Shown here one piece after another: positions 30,614 through 39,679 of a DNA stretch of 64,000 nt; positions within the stretch are counted from its first letter, which is position 1; every line of letters begins with the position of its first letter. The stretch lies in the sequence record MN022785.1; one strand, written 5' to 3'. The stretch comes from Escherichia phage VEc20. The position numbers and the translations under genes were made by a program. The notes below the pieces were generated by a model. That model worked only from the letters and a program-made list of their open reading frames with translations, was not told the DNA's origin and searched no databases.

Positions 30614-31030
30614 TTAAATGTAAATATTTTTGCCGTAATACTTATACCAGTGTGGCTTCATTAAAATTTTTTCATCGAGTCGTTGTTGACTCAACTTAAT
30701 AGCTGATTTGCATGGATTATAATCATTTTTCCATTCTACTGGAATATCGCTGATGTCAGGAACTTCAGTATCTTTTATACTGAACCCGCGTTTTAAGCAT
30801 TCCGTTATAATGTCCGATTGACGCTTTCGCAAAAATTCTAACTTATCGTAAAAGAAAGTAACATGACCAGAACCTAAAATAAATTTAGAAGATATTTTAA
30901 AATCTTTAACGCGCTTACCGTTTGCCACATGCTTACGAACTATACCAAAAACACGCGGCAATTCACGGTATTCTGCGATTAAATGTTGATCAGCAAGTTC
31001 AGATACTAAAGTCAAATTAATACGAGTCAT
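30614..31030 (-). CDS. denV: Endonuclease V (pyrimidine-dimer DNA glycosylase)
   Basis: 138 aa; [17 protein letters not shown]... close to recalled T4 endo V. Confidence 0.9.
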
Positions 31031-31089: not shown

Positions 31090-31620
<531 letters not shown>

Positions 31621-33897: not shown

Positions 33898-34491
33898 TTA
33901 TTTCAGAGAATTAATGTATTCCTGAACATCGGCAGAGGTAGTTTCAACCCCAGAAATATTACCGTTAAAGGTTTCAACTCGAGCAAGGGTATCTTCAATA
34001 TCAACCTTAGTCAGTGCTGCAATTTCAACTACATCATCAGCAGTACTAATTCCAAGGGCATTTGCTGCACGAGTTTCACGGATATATTCCAATTTAACCG
34101 CAAGTTCTTGACGAGCATCATCTAACTCAACTACTTTCTTGGCGATTTCAATTCGCATTTCAGCATAACCGTCAGCCTTAGTAGTCAACTGCTCAGCTGT
34201 TCGACGATATAGTAAACCGAGTTTAGCATGCATTGTTACATCTTGGCCTTCGGAAAGAAGTTTACGAATTTCACGCTCTTTTGATTCGGCCTGTCGATTC
34301 TTTTCGATAACAAGTTCACGAATACGTTTTTCTTCGTTAATAGATTTAACAGAAGCAGTTTTTAGATCTTTAATTTTATCAAGTAGTTTTGCTGCTGCAG
34401 CAGTATACTGTTCTTCGACAGATAGATTTTTAGCCATAGCAGAACCAAGTTTAGTGCGAATAAACTCAACAATTTTCTTCAGTGTGTTCAT
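33898..34491 (-). CDS. Coiled-coil protein resembling the PspA/IM30 family
   Basis: 197 aa, predominantly charged helical heptads (LLSEGQD...LYRRTAEQL...[14 protein letters not shown]); similarity judged by eye. Confidence 0.5.
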
Positions 34492-34593
34492 AGTATTTCC
34501 TTAGGTTAATTGAGATTTAAAATCCGTAGGAGTTATAATACTCTATCGTCAAATTATAGGCTCATAATATCTCAATCATGAGCCTGCGTAAAC

Positions 34594-34857
34594 TTATTTC
34601 ATATTATTGAAATATTCTTCTGCGATTTCGTCGTTATCATGGTAAACTTTAGAAGACAGTTTAACATAACCTTCTGCTGTGAACATATTAATCACAACTT
34701 TTACAGTATACCACTGACCGTCTTCATTACCCATTACTGCGTAAGTTTCAAACATCGGATGATCAGGACCGATAACTTTAATATCATTCACTGTACGACC
34801 GAAATCTTCTGAAACGCATTTCATAAAGAAGTTGAACAGTTCGCCGTAATTATCCAT
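34594..34857 (-). CDS. Hypothetical protein
   Basis: ORF 34594..34911; start moved to MDNYGEL because a promoter-like element lies at 34901-34931. Confidence 0.5.
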   Translation of the reverse strand: MDNYGELFNFFMKCVSEDFGRTVNDIKVIGPDHPMFETYAVMGNEDGQWYTVKVVINMFTAEGYVKLSSKVYHDNDEIAEEYFNNMK

Positions 34858-34900
34858 TTCATTCTCCAAGTTGTTTTTCTGTATCAGTAGTTGATAGTTG

Positions 34901-34931
34901 TATAGTACCATGGAAGAACAGGGATGTAAAC
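34901..34931 (-). promoter_or_regulatory. PeSL-type early promoter-like element
   Basis: GTTTACA, 17 nt, TACTATA. Confidence 0.5.
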
Positions 34932-35062
34932 AGTTTTGTGAAAAAATTTTTAAAAAGTTTTAGGGAATTCTAGGGTCAGGAGGGACAATTAAAAGGTAGG
35001 ATAATATATTATAAAGGGTATAAACTAAATGATGCCTAGAGAGACAAGGAAAGGCCTAGATA

Positions 35063-35097
35063 CCAAAAAGCCCCAACCTTTTGGTCGGGGCTAAGAA
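35063..35097 (-). terminator. Rho-independent terminator (copy 1 of a repeated hairpin)
   Basis: Minus strand agccccgaccaaaaggttggggct followed by TTTTT; near-identical to the hairpin at 35596-35632. Confidence 0.7.
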
Positions 35098-35099
35098 TG

Positions 35100-35561
35100 T
35101 TATTTGATTTGTTTAGCAGACCAAATGCGGTCTTTGATGATTTTTTGGAGGTCTTCAACATACTCTAGGTCATGAGCATGTGGATTATCTTTGAAACTAT
35201 GAGCTCGCGCAAGTTTCTGGCCTTCGGTCTTAATTATCAAAAGTTCTTTAAGAATTGCTTCATACCTAGAGATAATTCCTTTAGCAATATTTTTTTCTTG
35301 TGCTGCTTTAGGGTCAGCCTTAGGAGCAGGTTTACCAGAAGGTTTTTCGAAAGCCGCGCCAGTAGCAACCAGGCTTTTCCAGGCGGTGGTAACATAGTTA
35401 CCCACAAAGCCTTCAGCTCTCATATCGTCGTAGAACTTGTACCGAGATTCGTCAGAAGCATCTTTATAAGAATATTTACCAGCTTTAATAGCAGCAGTTG
35501 CTACAGCGCGAACATCTGAAGCGGATGCTTCGGTCATTAAAAATTGAGCATAAGTTTTCAT
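35100..35561 (-). CDS. Internal-protein-like protein with capsid-targeting-sequence-like N-terminus
   Basis: 153 aa beginning MKTYAQF, compare the T4 IPIII capsid-targeting sequence MKTYQEFIAE; Lys/Ala-rich; flanked by the two repeated terminators. Confidence 0.6.
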   Translation of the reverse strand: MKTYAQFLMTEASASDVRAVATAAIKAGKYSYKDASDESRYKFYDDMRAEGFVGNYVTTAWKSLVATGAAFEKPSGKPAPKADPKAAQEKNIAKGIISRYEAILKELLIIKTEGQKLARAHSFKDNPHAHDLEYVEDLQKIIKDRIWSAKQIK

Positions 35562-35595
35562 TGTTATTTCCTGTGTTAATTAACTCATCTATTTA

Positions 35596-35632
35596 TACTA
35601 AAAAGCCCCAACCTTTCGATCGGGGCTAAGCC
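35596..35632 (-). terminator. Rho-independent terminator (copy 2)
   Basis: Minus strand agccccgatcgaaaggttggggct followed by TTTTT. Confidence 0.7.
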
Positions 35633-35639
35633 TTGCGGC

Positions 35640-35935
35640 AACCTTGTCGGGGTTCCACCTGCTAAGGCAAGTGTTTGTACGAAACGCCGGGATTCGAACC
35701 CGGTTATTAAGTAGTTGACGCTACTCAATATTTTTAAAAGGCCATATCTCGACCATATCCGAACGTTCCGTCAAAAACGCTACTCGGCTTACGGCAAAGA
35801 TATTTCCTCGAATCGATAATTCGGTGCGCCGTTTCTGCTGTGATAGTAAAGAGCCAGAACACAGTAAAACTGTGGGAGGAAACTATACTCCAGGGAACAT
35901 CAGTCCGACGACTTACCGGTAGCGACCCGGTTTCT
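35640..35935 (-). ncRNA. Putative stable structured RNA(s) with a tRNA-like T-arm (possible counterpart of T4 RNA species 1/2)
   Basis: No ORF; canonical T-arm CCGGG-TTCGAAT-CCCGG at 35687-35703 with a possible 7-bp acceptor pairing (35680-35686 with 35764-35770); followed by a terminator. Confidence 0.4.
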
Positions 35936-36285
35936 TAATATTCTTTTAAAGAATCAATATATTCACGGCGTTTACGCCACAAATCAATTGCTTCATACGC
36001 GGATTCAGCATTTCGAATTAGCCGGCATTTATGTAAAGACTTATGATTTTGATATTGTGTAGATAACGGAATTGTATCTAAAAGGTCTTTACGATCAAAA
36101 TATTCGTAACCATCTAAACCAAATGAACGATTTTTGAGAAATTGCCAATGACCATATTCGTTTTCGACATAAACATAATCTGCATGCTGATAAAGCAAAT
36201 TAATTACACGTTCAGAAATAACAGTATCATTATGATTAAAATAGAATGTTAAATCATGAACTACTAAATAAACATTACCTTTCAT
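35935..36285 (-). CDS. Hypothetical protein between tRNA-Arg and the structured-RNA region
   Basis: 116-aa ORF. Confidence 0.5.
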   Translation of the reverse strand: MKGNVYLVVHDLTFYFNHNDTVISERVINLLYQHADYVYVENEYGHWQFLKNRSFGLDGYEYFDRKDLLDTIPLSTQYQNHKSLHKCRLIRNAESAYEAIDLWRKRREYIDSLKEY

Positions 36286-36303
36286 ATTTTCCTCACTTAT
36301 AAT

Positions 36304-36379
36304 TGGTCGAGGCAGTAGGGATCGAACCTACGACCTAGGACTTAGAAGGTCCTTGCTCTTCCTTCTGAGCTATGCCCCG
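36304..36379 (-). tRNA. tRNA-Arg (anticodon UCU), CCA encoded
   Basis: Hand-folded cloverleaf: 7-bp acceptor with one G-U, T-arm GTAGG/CCTAC, anticodon loop CUUCUAA. Confidence 0.8.
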
Positions 36380-36383
36380 TAAT

Positions 36384-36459
36384 TGGGGTGACCGATGGGA
36401 GTCGAACCCATGACTACGAGAATCACAATCTCGAGTTCTACCAACTGAACTACGGCCAC
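36384..36459 (-). tRNA. tRNA-His (anticodon GUG), discriminator C, CCA encoded
   Basis: Hand-folded: T-arm ATGGG/CCCAT, anticodon stem CGAGA/TCTCG, loop UUGUGAU; G-1 not encoded. Confidence 0.65.
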
Positions 36460-36573
36460 ATTAATACCTACTCCAACAATCAAGATGTCTTCACACGAAA
36501 TTAAGAGAAGAGTGATCAGTTCAACCCCTATAATCGCGTCAAGTAGATATTAATGTGACAGTTGTCACAAATT

Positions 36574-36649
36574 TGGCGGACGTGATAGGATTCGAACCTA
36601 TAACCAATCGCTTAACAGGCGATCGCTCTGCCATTGAGCTACACATCCA
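36574..36649 (-). tRNA. tRNA-Asn (anticodon GUU)
   Basis: Hand-folded: T-arm ATAGG/CCTAT, anticodon stem ATCGC/GCGAT, loop CUGUUAA. Confidence 0.7.
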
Positions 36650-36652
36650 AAT

Positions 36653-36739
36653 TGGTGGGGAGTGGTGGAGTCGAACCACCCGAGTCGCAATGACAATGAA
36701 TTTACAGTCCACACCGCTACATCTACGGGATAACTCCCC
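36653..36739 (-). tRNA. Type II (long variable arm) tRNA, probably tRNA-Tyr (GUA)
   Basis: Perfect 7-bp acceptor, T-arm GGTGG/CCACC, 87 nt; anticodon loop CUGUAAA; D-arm and anticodon stem irregular. Confidence 0.55.
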
Positions 36740-36748
36740 AAATTAATT

Positions 36749-36823
36749 TGGTGGCCCTGGGTGGAATTGAACCACCATCTGGCGATTATGAGTCGCTTGC
36801 TTGAACCTTCCAGCTACAGGGCC
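36749..36823 (-). tRNA. tRNA with CAU anticodon (Met, or Ile if lysidine-modified as in T4)
   Basis: Perfect acceptor stem, T-loop TTCAATT, anticodon loop CUCAUAA. Confidence 0.75.
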
Positions 36824-36824
36824 T

Positions 36825-36900
36825 TGGTGCTGATTGACGGAATCGAACCGCCGACCTTCTCATTACAAGTGAGTTGCTCTACCTACTGAGCTAAATCAGC
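36825..36900 (-). tRNA. tRNA-Thr (anticodon UGU)
   Basis: Perfect acceptor, anticodon loop CUUGUAA. Confidence 0.8.
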
Positions 36901-36905
36901 AAAAC

Positions 36906-36995
36906 TGGCGGAGGCGATAGGATTTGAACCTATGAGTCGCCGGAGCGACTGCCGGTTTTCAAGACCGGTGCATTAAACCACTCTGCCACGCCTCC
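36906..36995 (-). tRNA. tRNA-Ser (anticodon UGA), type II
   Basis: 90 nt, variable-arm hairpin, anticodon loop CUUGAAA. Confidence 0.8.
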
Positions 36996-36997
36996 AG

Positions 36998-37071
36998 TCT
37001 CCGTGGCAGGATTTGAACCTACGACATTCTGCTCCCAAAGCAGACGCTCTACCAAACTGAGCTACACGGAG
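36998..37071 (-). tRNA. tRNA-Pro (anticodon UGG), CCA not encoded
   Basis: Anticodon loop UUUGGGA; 3' end 2 nt from the tRNA-Ser 5' end (Pro-Ser dimeric precursor as in T4). Confidence 0.8.
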
Positions 37072-37081
37072 TAAATTAAAT

Positions 37082-37155
<74 letters not shown>

Positions 37156-37160
37156 AAATT

Positions 37161-37247
37161 TGGTGCGAGAAGTGGGACTCGAACCCACAAGGAAATCATT
37201 CCGCAGCATTTTAAGTGCTGTGCCTTTACCAATTTGACCATTCTCGC
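37161..37247 (-). tRNA. tRNA-Leu (anticodon UAA), type II
   Basis: 87 nt, perfect acceptor, anticodon stem CAGCA/TGCTG, loop CUUAAAA. Confidence 0.8.
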
Positions 37248-37248
37248 G

Positions 37249-37321
37249 CTGGGAATAAAGGACTCGAACCTTTGCATCTAGCAGTCAAAGTGCTATGCCT
37301 TACCAACTTGGCTAATTCCCA
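37249..37321 (-). tRNA. tRNA-Gln (anticodon UUG), CCA not encoded
   Basis: Anticodon loop CUUUGAC; 3' end abuts the tRNA-Leu 5' end (Gln-Leu dimeric precursor as in T4). Confidence 0.8.
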
Positions 37322-37418
37322 ATTATTAACAAAGGCTCTCTAACAAGAACCCTTGATGATAGAGGGTATTAATCAGTGCGGTATGAGTTAATAATAACAA
37401 ATAATTCTTAAAGCATAT

Positions 37419-37706
37419 TTACCATTTATGATAATACGTATTTACGATACATTCAAGACCCAAAGGATTCTTGAAAATATTATATTCAAGAGGACCTTTT
37501 TCCGTTTCAATAAAGAAATCAAAGTTAACTGTGTTAAATTTACGGTCTTCCTTCACTAATTTAACTTGAGAAGATGAACGGTCAATGTAAACCTTTTCAA
37601 CTTCAAAACAGGTTAAAATGCCATAATCATCAATCAAGGCTTTAGCTGCTTCTTGATCATATTTATATCCATTTTCAATGGATGATACTTTAGCATAAAG
37701 AATCAT
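37419..37706 (-). CDS. Hypothetical protein
   Basis: 95-aa ORF. Confidence 0.5.
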   Translation of the reverse strand: MILYAKVSSIENGYKYDQEAAKALIDDYGILTCFEVEKVYIDRSSSQVKLVKEDRKFNTVNFDFFIETEKGPLEYNIFKNPLGLECIVNTYYHKW

Positions 37707-37708
37707 TA

Positions 37709-38107
37709 TCAGCCTTCATCAACAATAGTATGAGTATTGGCATTTACGATTTGCCACCAGTCAAAGCGATTAGAACCCATCGGTTTGTTTTCATTTTCTT
37801 TGATAATGTCACGGAGTTCATCTTCAGAGAATGCTTTAGCGATTAAATCGGTATACCCACCACGTGGATAATAATTATCACCTGCAAACAAAAGGAAATT
37901 TACCTTCCCGGAAGGAACATATGCTTCCTTAGGATACTTGTTTCCTGCGTGGTCAACCACTTCAATATAACGGTAAGGAATATCGGTTCTTTCAACCCAT
38001 TGCCATGCCGCCGCAGGGGAATCGAAAGCATCTACACCTAAACGATTATCTTCATCTTTAGACGGATTATTTTCGTAATCCGCATATACATAATATTCAA
38101 CGTTCAT
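37709..38107 (-). CDS. Hypothetical protein
   Basis: 132-aa ORF; ATGA overlap with the downstream gene. Confidence 0.5.
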   Translation of the reverse strand: MNVEYYVYADYENNPSKDEDNRLGVDAFDSPAAAWQWVERTDIPYRYIEVVDHAGNKYPKEAYVPSGKVNFLLFAGDNYYPRGGYTDLIAKAFSEDELRDIIKENENKPMGSNRFDWWQIVNANTHTIVDEG

Positions 38108-38292
38108 TATTCACCTTTAGAAATTTTATCCATAACGATAGCAATTAAACCAATTAAAAATGCTACTACAAGTGAAAAAACATTTTCTGCCGTAGTCAAT
38201 AATCCGCATATAAATCCAACAAACATTGAAAAACTGAAAGCGGAAGCAGAAATTGCAATAGCAACATTTCGAATTAATTCACAACGTTTCAT
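38107..38292 (-). CDS. Small membrane protein
   Basis: ORF 38107..38433; start moved to MKRCELIRN because of the promoter-like element at 38320-38350; hydrophobic helices. Confidence 0.45.
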   Translation of the reverse strand: MKRCELIRNVAIAISASAFSFSMFVGFICGLLTTAENVFSLVVAFLIGLIAIVMDKISKGE

Positions 38293-38319
38293 TTTATTCT
38301 CCTCAGTAGTTGATAGGGT

Positions 38320-38350
38320 AATAGTATCACTACCCCATCTAAAAGTAAAC
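38320..38350 (-). promoter_or_regulatory. PeSL-type early promoter-like element
   Basis: GTTTAC, spacer, TACTAT with a flanking inverted repeat. Confidence 0.5.
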
Positions 38351-38584
38351 TTATTTTTTACGAAAAATTGATTTATTTTCTGCTGCCCATTTTTCAATAA
38401 CTGCAGCAGGACCAGTAACAACAATTTTATCACCGTAATCTTCTGCGGCGAGTTGACCGAAATTATCTAATGCATCACGAAGAACTCCATGAGGCATTTC
38501 ACCCATTTTATCTTTCTTGCCGGTGTAAATAAACTCAACTTTTACATCAGAAGATTCAGCGATAAACTCTTTGAAAGTTTTCAT
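38351..38584 (-). CDS. Internal-protein-like small protein with capsid-targeting sequence
   Basis: ORF 38351..38596; starts MKTFKEFIAE at the internal Met, matching the T4 IP capsid-targeting sequence pattern. Confidence 0.6.
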   Translation of the reverse strand: MKTFKEFIAESSDVKVEFIYTGKKDKMGEMPHGVLRDALDNFGQLAAEDYGDKIVVTGPAAVIEKWAAENKSIFRKK

Positions 38585-38620
38585 TTTAGTTTCCATTCGA
38601 TTGTTTTGTTTTGATAGGGT

Positions 38621-38651
38621 AATAGTATCACAACTAAAACCCTATGTAAAC
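38621..38651 (-). promoter_or_regulatory. PeSL-type early promoter-like element (repeat shared with 38952-38982)
   Basis: Shares the atgtaaacaactttgtgaaattattttaaatc block with the next element. Confidence 0.5.
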
Positions 38652-38663
38652 AACTTTGTGAAA

Positions 38664-38921
38664 TTATTTTAAATCTTCTAATCGTTTCTTCATCTTAGAA
38701 CCATTTTTAGCAATTTCTCCTGCATCGGAGCATAATGCTAAAAGTGCTTTAACTTTCGTTTGGTCTCCTTTAAAAGATGAAGGATCTACTGCAGCAGCAA
38801 GTTCTTTAATACGAGAGAAAAGACGCTCAGCTTCAGCTAAAGCCATTCCAAGCTTTACTTCCATACCGTGGGAAGATTCAGTGATAGTAGTTTTTGCAGC
38901 AAACTCTTTGAAAGTTTTCAT
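38664..38921 (-). CDS. Internal protein I-like protein with capsid-targeting sequence
   Basis: 85 aa beginning MKTFKEFAAK; lies at the T4 ipI position between the tRNAs and 57B. Confidence 0.6.
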   Translation of the reverse strand: MKTFKEFAAKTTITESSHGMEVKLGMALAEAERLFSRIKELAAAVDPSSFKGDQTKVKALLALCSDAGEIAKNGSKMKKRLEDLK

Positions 38922-38951
38922 TTTTATTTTCCTAATTAATTTTGATGAGGT

Positions 38952-38982
38952 AATAGTATCACTACCTCATCAGTATGTAAAC
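38952..38982 (-). promoter_or_regulatory. PeSL-type early promoter-like element
   Basis: GTTTACA, 17 nt, TACTAT; inverted repeat tgatgaggta/tacctcatca around the -10. Confidence 0.5.
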
Positions 38983-38994
38983 AACTTTGTGAAA

Positions 38995-39679
<685 letters not shown>

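Follow-up and report, generated by a model that had tools for sequence, protein, structure and literature searches.

Capsid-targeting leaders in a Tequatrovirus genome: Ip5, Ip6 and a candidate internal protein family at a third locus

Internal proteins (Ips) are the first phage molecules to meet host immunity. In a 64,000-nt stretch of Escherichia phage VEc20 (record MN022785.1; hereafter the window), three small genes encoding proteins of 85, 77 and 153 amino acids (aa) begin with N-termini of the kind that directs the T4 Ips into the head. As the best explanation overall, we consider that the region encodes three proteins which are probably loaded into the head and injected together with the DNA. 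For the most part this is a rediscovery, to which a probable new internal protein family at a third locus is added. Judging from their sequences, the 85-aa and 77-aa proteins are Ip5 and Ip6, both of which are already catalogued. The case for the 153-aa gene is well supported though unproven; it is a candidate from an unannotated family that bears the leader, is transcribed late and occupies a third cassette site.

Leaders of the three genes

An earlier note on this DNA had read the N-termini of three open reading frames (ORFs) as capsid-targeting sequences (CTSs). The three minus-strand ORFs are present at the positions it gave and begin with MKTYAQF (153 aa), MKTFKEFIAE (77 aa) and MKTFKEFAAK (85 aa), and the reading holds for each of them, residue 4 being aromatic and residue 7 being Phe (M-K-T-[Y/F]-x-[E/Q]-F). 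The head-targeting mechanism is established for T4 IPIII, and we infer it for the window proteins. A leader of ~10-15 residues would bind the scaffolding core at prohead assembly, with the aromatic residue 4 and Phe 7 as the key residues, and the prohead protease gp21 would then cleave after Glu in an L/I-x-E context. The basic mature protein would remain with the packaged DNA and enter the host at injection, where the injected proteins would block first-line, modification-dependent (type IV) restriction. Amber-suppression genetics of IPIII assigned targeting mainly to residues 4 and 7 and processing to residues 8 and 10, and Asp at position 10 (E10D) blocked processing with packaging retained (PMC9026906).

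When the motif M-K-[S/T]-[Y/F]-x-[E/Q]-F was written as a DNA pattern (ATGAARWCNTWYNNNSARTTY), it matched exactly three times in the 64 kb, at these three start codons, and the mean and the maximum in 100 dinucleotide-preserving shuffles were both 0. A looser regular expression, applied to 613 Met-initiated open frames of at least 40 aa, gave one extra weak partial match, an 87-aa ORF on the minus strand (1220-1483) that starts MTFDEFKNVMM. Its likeness is confined to aromatic-x-E-F, with no L/I-x-E site nearby, and is probably due to chance. In 20 loci of relatives, the pattern fell on the starts of annotated Ip genes or of genes at the site between rnaC and e.8, and in the IMG/VR loci among them on unannotated starts where the ipI or the e-denV locus is expected. 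The sole exception was T4 gene 61.1 (NC_000866; L010:18966-19130), whose 54-aa hypothetical product (PHROG 1823) starts with a near-perfect leader, MKTFKEFIKE/DMVAG, where the slash here and below stands for the expected cut. Gene 61.1 is far from both known Ip loci, and the Gly/Ser-rich body of its product terminates in KKKKEESKEKEE.

The leader of Ip5, MKTFKEFAAKTTITE/SSHG, has a predicted canonical gp21 site at I-T-E15/S; its counterpart in T4 IPI is MKTFKEFTSTTTPVSTITE/A, and gp21 sites in Alt are ITE-6 and LTE-619. The Ip6 leader, MKTFKEFIAE/SSDV, carries a canonical I-A-E10/S, with length and site as in T4 IPII and IPIII (MKTYQEFIAE/A). An alignment with IPI, IPII and IPIII, as the earlier note had suggested, bore out the likeness in the leaders; the mature part of the 153-aa protein has no similarity to these three or to Ip4, Ip5 or Ip6 beyond the leader. 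No Pfam family matched any of the three proteins. The note had also put the 153-aa gene off the canonical ip positions, which is correct, as it sits between rnaC and e.8, and had seen no ipII- or ipIII-type gene between denV and e. This is also correct, since denV (30614-31030) directly adjoins e (31090-31584) and leaves nothing at the ipII/ipIII site.

The 153-aa gene and its relatives between rnaC and e.8

In comparison with T4, the window contains a ~500-bp insertion (35095-35594) exactly at the rnaC terminator. A 36-nt direct repeat is present in two copies that are 92% identical and lie 535 nt apart, and each copy is a terminator hairpin (Table 1). The T4 e.8-rnaC spacer aligns on either side of the insertion, and a ~35-nt hairpin segment of it is used twice. 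In the curated RB51 record, the orthologue of the 153-aa gene, RB32ORF132c, is described as 'flanked by 34 bp imperfect direct repeat' and bears no Ip name. Between the upstream hairpin and the start codon, a T4-type late promoter box, TATAAATA, is followed by a GGA Shine-Dalgarno sequence. The junction of hairpin and TATAAATA also precedes DalCa gp134, RB51ORF140 and Mineola gp134, with a different remaining spacer in each, and the uninterrupted T4 spacer reads GGTATCTA at the junction point and has no TATAAATA. Because the box is not enriched in the whole window (13 observed vs 10 expected), the argument from it is one of position and cross-genus conservation only.

The 153-aa cassette is self-contained, consisting of a terminator hairpin, the late promoter, a ribosome-binding site, the ORF and a second terminator hairpin, inserted at the rnaC terminator. 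It differs from the cassettes bordered by early promoter/stem-loop (PeSL) elements (PMC2839356, PMC4122927) in its borders, where a late promoter together with duplicated intrinsic-terminator hairpins takes the place of the early promoter/stem-loop, and as such it is not a PeSL cassette. The literature speaks of 'the two Ip loci' (PMC12373910). The 153-aa gene is absent from T4, T6 and PST, and rnaC-e.8 is a third locus which those phages lack. Placement at the Ip loci is a positional habit, not a mechanistic requirement.

The 153-aa protein is 100% identical to RB27_136, from a phage that carries T4-type ipI and Ip4, and orthologues with 60-100% identity occur in 511 phage records; in a sample of 40 rows from these records, all 40 orthologues were annotated 'hypothetical protein'. 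It aligns with positions 1-172 of the 178 of the PHROG 2280 profile, which is full length. Three body types occupy the rnaC-e.8 site. Type A is the 153/157-aa form, type B has 187 aa (e.g. DalCa gp133, L001:3087-3650, MKTYAEFLTE/AAK) and is missing from the window, and type C has 205 aa (MKTYNEFLNESVLNE/AG). The homologue gp134 of Klebsiella phage Mineola (Jiaodavirus) shares the type A N-domain (57% over 84 residues) and differs in its C-terminal half. Full-length matches to PHROG 2280 were obtained with types A, B and C and the Mineola protein (E 1e-52 to 1e-60 for the four, and 1e-53 to 1e-60 without type A). They form a single family that diverges fast and is built on a common plan, and they are not unrelated cassettes. 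When 1.8 billion representatives were searched exhaustively with a profile, 11 relatives only were recovered, and PHROG 2280 is a diverged family restricted to T4-like phages. Four database proteins (P0009, P0010, P0015 and P0016) are chimeras in which pieces of the 153-aa family are joined to tRNA.3-like, NudE-like or unrelated sequence; they are either real recombinants around the cassette or metagenome mis-assemblies.

The leader stays nearly constant in this family while the bodies diverge; the leaders of type C and of one type A allele hardly differ. The neighbouring e.8 gene gave access to ten IMG/VR loci, and in every one of them the stretch from rnaC to e.8 carries a leader-bearing ORF, or two of them. 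When 18 leaders were aligned, M1, K2, Y4 and F7 did not vary. An extended, double-site leader of the form '...E-S-[V/I]-L-N-E' (E(S/A)VLNE) is also found in ORFs of two IMG/VR loci (L017 and L019), ~3.3 kb upstream of e.8 at the expected ipI locus. The most distant relatives start with MLKFNEFLAE, MLEYSEFLKE and MISFNEFVDGNLITE. All three are altered at residues 2-3 and keep the aromatic residue 4 (Tyr or Phe), Phe 7 and a hydrophobic residue 8 (Leu or Val); the first two also keep Glu 10, and the third (P0018) has ITE at positions 13-15 in its place. Because the targeting residues are kept while residues 2-3 and the bodies vary, the leader appears to be a selected signal and not a recombination scar.

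The 153-aa protein consists of the leader MKTYAQFLMTE/ASASD, a helical N-domain (14-67), a P/K/A-rich linker (72-83) and a helical hairpin (84-150). In the AlphaFold2 (AF2) model, with a mean pLDDT of 73, the leader is disordered, the N-domain is a three-helix domain and the hairpin after the linker is long. The predicted mature part has 142 aa, an isoelectric point (pI) of 9.4 and 13% Lys, and the pI of IPI-III and Ip4-5 ranges from 9.0 to 9.65. A sequence profile search of the PDB gave nothing below E 0.6, and Foldseek with the AF2 model found no PDB match better than E 0.97. Against BFVD, Foldseek returned at E <=0.001 only two family members (72-85% identical), so the fold offers no functional lead.

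Table 1. Positions in the window of the genes and regulatory elements discussed, with the basis of each assignment.
Feature	Position	Strand	Basis
36-nt repeat, downstream copy (terminator hairpin at the end of the 153-aa cassette)	35060..35095 (stem 35069-35092)	-	Repeat search; terminator scan; T4 alignment
153-aa gene, candidate internal protein, MKTYAQFLMTEASAS	35100..35561	-	PHROG 2280 'unknown function', E 5e-52
T4-type late promoter box, TATAAATA	35590..35597	-	Adjoins the upstream hairpin; ends 28 nt before the 153-aa ATG
36-nt repeat, upstream copy (intrinsic-terminator hairpin of rnaC)	35595..35630 (stem 35604-35627)	-	Repeat search; terminator scan
rnaC (species 1 RNA), its terminator being the insertion point of the 153-aa cassette	35678..35816	-	blastn, 99% identical to T4 rnaC; same position annotated in RB27
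Third, more diverged promoter/stem-loop element, Ip6-tRNA.4 gap	38311..38350	-	Read directly (gtTTACTTttagatggggtagtgaTACTATtaccctatca); below scan threshold
Ip6 gene, 77 aa, MKTFKEFIAESSDV	38351..38584	-	PHROG 8111 'internal virion protein', E 3e-51
Second early promoter/stem-loop copy, Ip5-Ip6 gap	38610..38663	-	Promoter scan 38650-38622; repeated string AATTTCACAAAGTTGTTTACATA
Ip5 gene, 85 aa, MKTFKEFAAKTTITESSHG	38664..38921	-	PHROG 3499 'internal head protein', E 4e-49
Early promoter with embedded stem-loop (PeSL-type cassette border) before Ip5, TTTACA-17-TACTAT	38940..38995	-	Promoter scan 38981-38953, TG extension
Gene 57B, Acb1 (anti-CBASS nuclease), left flank of the Ip locus	38995..39453	-	Pfam PF23474, E 3e-60; synteny with T4, T6 and PST

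Packaging and function of the 153-aa protein

The predicted packaging of the 153-aa protein is supported by the family-wide targeting residues, the conserved late promoter, the cassette structure and the basic, lysine-rich mature part. The window genes resemble T4 IPI-III (PMC12373910; PMC3012670) in the type of leader with its targeting residues 4 and 7, in their small and mostly basic mature parts, in probably being non-essential accessory genes and in their cassette-like, hypervariable settings. They differ from them in that the mature parts have no sequence or fold similarity. The 153-aa gene differs further by its place at rnaC-e.8 instead of 57B-tRNA.4 or denV-e, by its late promoter in contrast with an early promoter/stem-loop, by terminator-hairpin borders in contrast with PeSLs, and by Glu 11 in contrast with Glu 10. 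The three T4 proteins, Ip1, Ip2 and Ip3, each inhibit one type IV restriction enzyme of the GmrSD type (PMC12373910). The anti-restriction role expected in the earlier note is backed by the literature for these three and, with McrBC as the target, for Ip6; for the 153-aa protein such a function is purely inferred, and a structural or DNA-associated role is equally open.

Several observations weigh against three packaged and injected proteins. Our search turned up neither mass spectrometry of virions nor results on N-terminal processing that cover one of the three, and the mature part of Ip6 is not basic (pI 6.5). The 153-aa gene is outside both the 57B-tRNA.4 and the denV/vs.8-e Ip loci, and its orthologue has no Ip name in the curated RB27 and RB51, the RefSeq DalCa or the BASEL Bas35-37 annotations; literature searches by locus and ORF names gave nothing relevant. 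T4 ipI-III are preceded by early-type promoters rather than by TATAAATA, which means that Ip genes do not have the late promoter in common. In the window allele, which reads F7-L8-M9-T10-E11/A, Glu comes one residue late and Met occupies P3, departing from the canonical L/I-x-E10, and processing may be poor because of this non-canonical motif. In most orthologues the site reads L8-x-E10, and a second L-[N/T]-E often comes after it; the window allele looks like a deletion that fused the two sites. In the one virion proteome queried, that of the Jiaodaviruses ValerieMcCarty03/04 (PMC13119998), the portions of the supplement that were covered list no peptides of the Mineola-type homologue, and the paper states that counts were low for all hypothetical proteins. 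Finally, the orthologue of the 153-aa gene in phage Bas37 (KarlGJung, MZ501089), bas37_0244, showed no significant mutant phenotype on strains CFT073, CFE299 and CFE303, with log2 fold changes (log2FC) of -0.11, -0.30 and -0.14, respectively (bioRxiv 10.1101/2025.11.20.689424). As such, these data point to no defence target of the 153-aa orthologue.

The Bas37 data also bear on an alternative that we regard as rather unlikely, in which the 153-aa protein is packaged via its leader and has a structural task, namely DNA charge neutralisation, a part in the prohead core or an aid to ejection, in replacement of IPII/IPIII. Its basic, Lys-rich composition with the P/K/A-rich linker, a late promoter as in structural genes, the lack of ipII/ipIII between denV and e in this phage and the absence of a host-specific phenotype of bas37_0244 in the three clinical strains would all fit such a task. 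The type B paralogue in the same PHROG, bas37_0243 (L025:2029-2592, leader MKTYAEFLTE), was hit at 1 of its 48 TA sites and classed 'Essential', unlike an accessory anti-defence gene, and the genes flanking it were freely hit (bioRxiv 10.1101/2025.11.20.689424). This essentiality is unexpected for a cassette gene which many relatives lack, and it could be an artefact, given that hoc and other non-essential late genes took up hardly any insertions in the Bas37 library. It keeps open a structural or K-12-specific role for the PHROG 2280 family. Speaking against a structural task, the direct orthologue bas37_0244, 78% identical to the 153-aa protein and likewise of type A, is non-essential with 29 of 34 TA sites hit (HIDEN-SEQ, bioRxiv 10.1101/2025.11.20.689424), a dispensability in Bas37 that parallels that of the T4 Ips in T4. 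Furthermore, T4, T6 and PST do without the gene, the family shows the hypervariable, cassette-borne pattern of arms-race genes, and all three T4 Ips are inhibitors of type IV restriction (PMC12373910).

Less probable still is a reading in which the 153-aa protein, made late, is cytoplasmic or in some other way no part of the virion, and its CTS-like N-terminus is a relic of recombination with Ip cassettes. The missing proteomic evidence of packaging, the non-canonical cleavage motif of the window allele and the position off the recognised Ip loci agree with this, as do the four chimeric database proteins, which indicate that the gene readily recombines or mis-assembles. A relic would decay, however, and positions 4, 7, 8 and mostly 10 are kept across PHROG 2280, also in genera with altered residues 2-3, while the residues that follow vary and carry indels. 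The codons of the 153-aa leader differ from those of the T4 ip genes, which places the conservation at the protein level and counts against a relic. A coincidence of the three N-termini, for which nothing speaks except that the motif is short, is effectively refuted by three matches vs none in 100 shuffles and by the 20 loci, where apart from T4 61.1 the motif occurs only at ORF starts at or beside Ip sites or at rnaC-e.8.

Returning to injected internal proteins at a third site, we lean slightly towards a more specific picture, in which a class of late-promoter genes on terminator-hairpin cassettes encodes proteins with a leader and a helical N-domain, followed by a P/K-rich linker and then a helical hairpin. 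In this picture, the phage could not do without at least one paralogue, bas37_0243 of type B, and the window 153-aa gene would be the sole copy of the class in its phage. If this is true, bas37_0243 would be the first internal protein that is essential or counters a K-12 defence. The targets of four Ips are known (T4 Ip1-3 and Bas37 Ip6); all are type IV restriction enzymes, and each of the four inhibitors is narrowly specific. If PHROG 2280 were recognised as a leader-bearing family, the candidate injected inhibitors would gain several body types and a third hotspot; the family occurs in ~500 sequenced genomes of Tequatrovirus and Jiaodavirus, of which many are candidates for therapy. Annotation pipelines would gain a simple rule, namely to look for a CTS motif where a cassette has a late or early promoter, and the essentiality reported for one paralogue in Bas37 would become directly testable. 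What the analysis adds on Ip5 and Ip6 is confined to correct naming and a link to recent functional data.

Ip5, Ip6 and the neighbouring genes

Ip5 and Ip6 are said to have been treated as T-even internal proteins by Repoila et al. in 1994 (EMBO J 13:4181), a reference given in PMC12373910 and PMC4122927. The window genes are of this T6/T2/PST type, being 93-99% identical, with the same locus, order and flanking elements and few substitutions, which lie mainly in the leader (MKTF-K-EF in the window vs MKTY-Q-EF in Bas37 Ip6). The 85-aa protein shares 95-99% identity with the genes that bear the name Ip5 in RB51, T6, fHoEco02 and JK08 and with a T2 'internal head protein', and 99% with bas37_0261. 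For the 77-aa protein, the figures are 93.5% with the gene that the T6 record notes as Ip6, 73% with VR7 'ip6' and 95% with bas37_0260, the 77-aa gene adjoining tRNA.4 in Bas37. Both genes occupy the classical, hypervariable ipI locus between 57B and tRNA.4, which is canonical and, with denV-e, makes up the two recognised Ip loci. The order 57B-Ip5-Ip6-tRNA.4 is identical in T6, PST (as 'IpV' and 'IpVI') and Bas35-37. The first 7 codons of Ip5 match T4 ipI, and the 90 nt upstream are identical to those upstream of T4 ipI. An upstream in-frame ATG of Ip6 at 38596 (38585-38596, METKMKTF...) has no Shine-Dalgarno sequence, and homologues start at 38584. Mechanical ORF callers give an 81-aa product from this ATG, in which the leader would be buried.

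TTTACA-17-TACTAT with embedded inverted repeats precedes both Ip5 and Ip6, and a weaker copy precedes tRNA.4. PeSL elements mediate cassette shuffling and were first noticed at the IP locus; these short conserved regulatory hairpins flank small accessory ORFs and give homology for swaps (PMC2839356, PMC4122927), which applies directly to Ip5 and Ip6. Each of the two genes is bracketed by an early promoter/stem-loop that probably serves as a recombination border. Ips were not discussed in Petrov 2010. Among many Tequatroviruses, a 48%-identical Ip5 paralogue with the leader MKTYSEFLSESILNE stands beside the lysozyme gene e (e.g. L013:6780-6929), so that the Ip5-type body is found at both classical Ip loci.

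In Bas37, bas37_0260, which occupies the ipI locus and has an Ip leader, was deleted, and the phage became specifically sensitive to McrBC (bioRxiv 10.1101/2025.11.20.689424). It is the orthologue of window Ip6 at the same position, although the name Ip6 is absent from the preprint, and protection from McrBC was shown with the Bas37 allele. Insertion mutants of Bas37 Ip5 were depleted on uropathogenic Escherichia coli (UPEC) CFT073 (log2FC -2.09, adjusted p 0; Extended Data Table 7) and showed no depletion on CFE299 or CFE303 (bioRxiv 10.1101/2025.11.20.689424). The fitness defect of these mutants on CFT073 suggests that Ip5 blocks restriction. Bair, Rifat and Black reportedly found in 2007 that CFT073 carries a GmrSD homologue insensitive to IPI*. 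The pairing of Ip5 with GmrSD(CFT073) is a lead, not a result.

The window belongs to a Tequatrovirus, and bases 34500-39500 match 1185 phage records; the top matches, at ~96% identity, are all Tequatrovirus (Ptacy1496, Paracelsus (Bas36), DalCa, HP3 and WilhelmHis (Bas35)), and identity is likewise ~96% for the three BASEL phages Bas35-37. Every gene in this part is on the minus strand. Along transcription, the order is gene 1, 57A, 57B, the 85-aa ORF, the 77-aa ORF, tRNA.4, tRNA.3, tRNA.2, eleven tRNA genes, a 116-aa ORF, rnaD, rnaC, the 153-aa ORF, e.8, e.6, e.5 ... nudE, e and denV. We placed rnaC and rnaD by blastn against T4, as Rfam has no family for either. Since 57B, directly upstream of Ip5, is Acb1, the genes for Acb1, Ip5 and Ip6 form a contiguous counter-defence block; in several GenBank records, 57B is mislabelled 'RNA ligase' or 'portal protein'. 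The 116-aa ORF (35935-36285, minus strand; PHROG 3355 'unknown function') lies between rnaD and tRNA-Arg. In T4 and T6, segB is immediately upstream of tRNA-Arg within the tRNA cluster, and the window cluster, with 11 tRNA genes vs 8 in T4, has no segB-like ORF. The e.6 orthologue (33898-34491, minus strand) belongs to PHROG 1203, whose function label is unknown. Its Bas37 counterpart, bas37_0240, showed the strongest depletion of the region on UPEC CFT073 in the HIDEN-SEQ table (log2FC -6.49, adjusted p 0), with a downward trend on CFE303 (-1.37).

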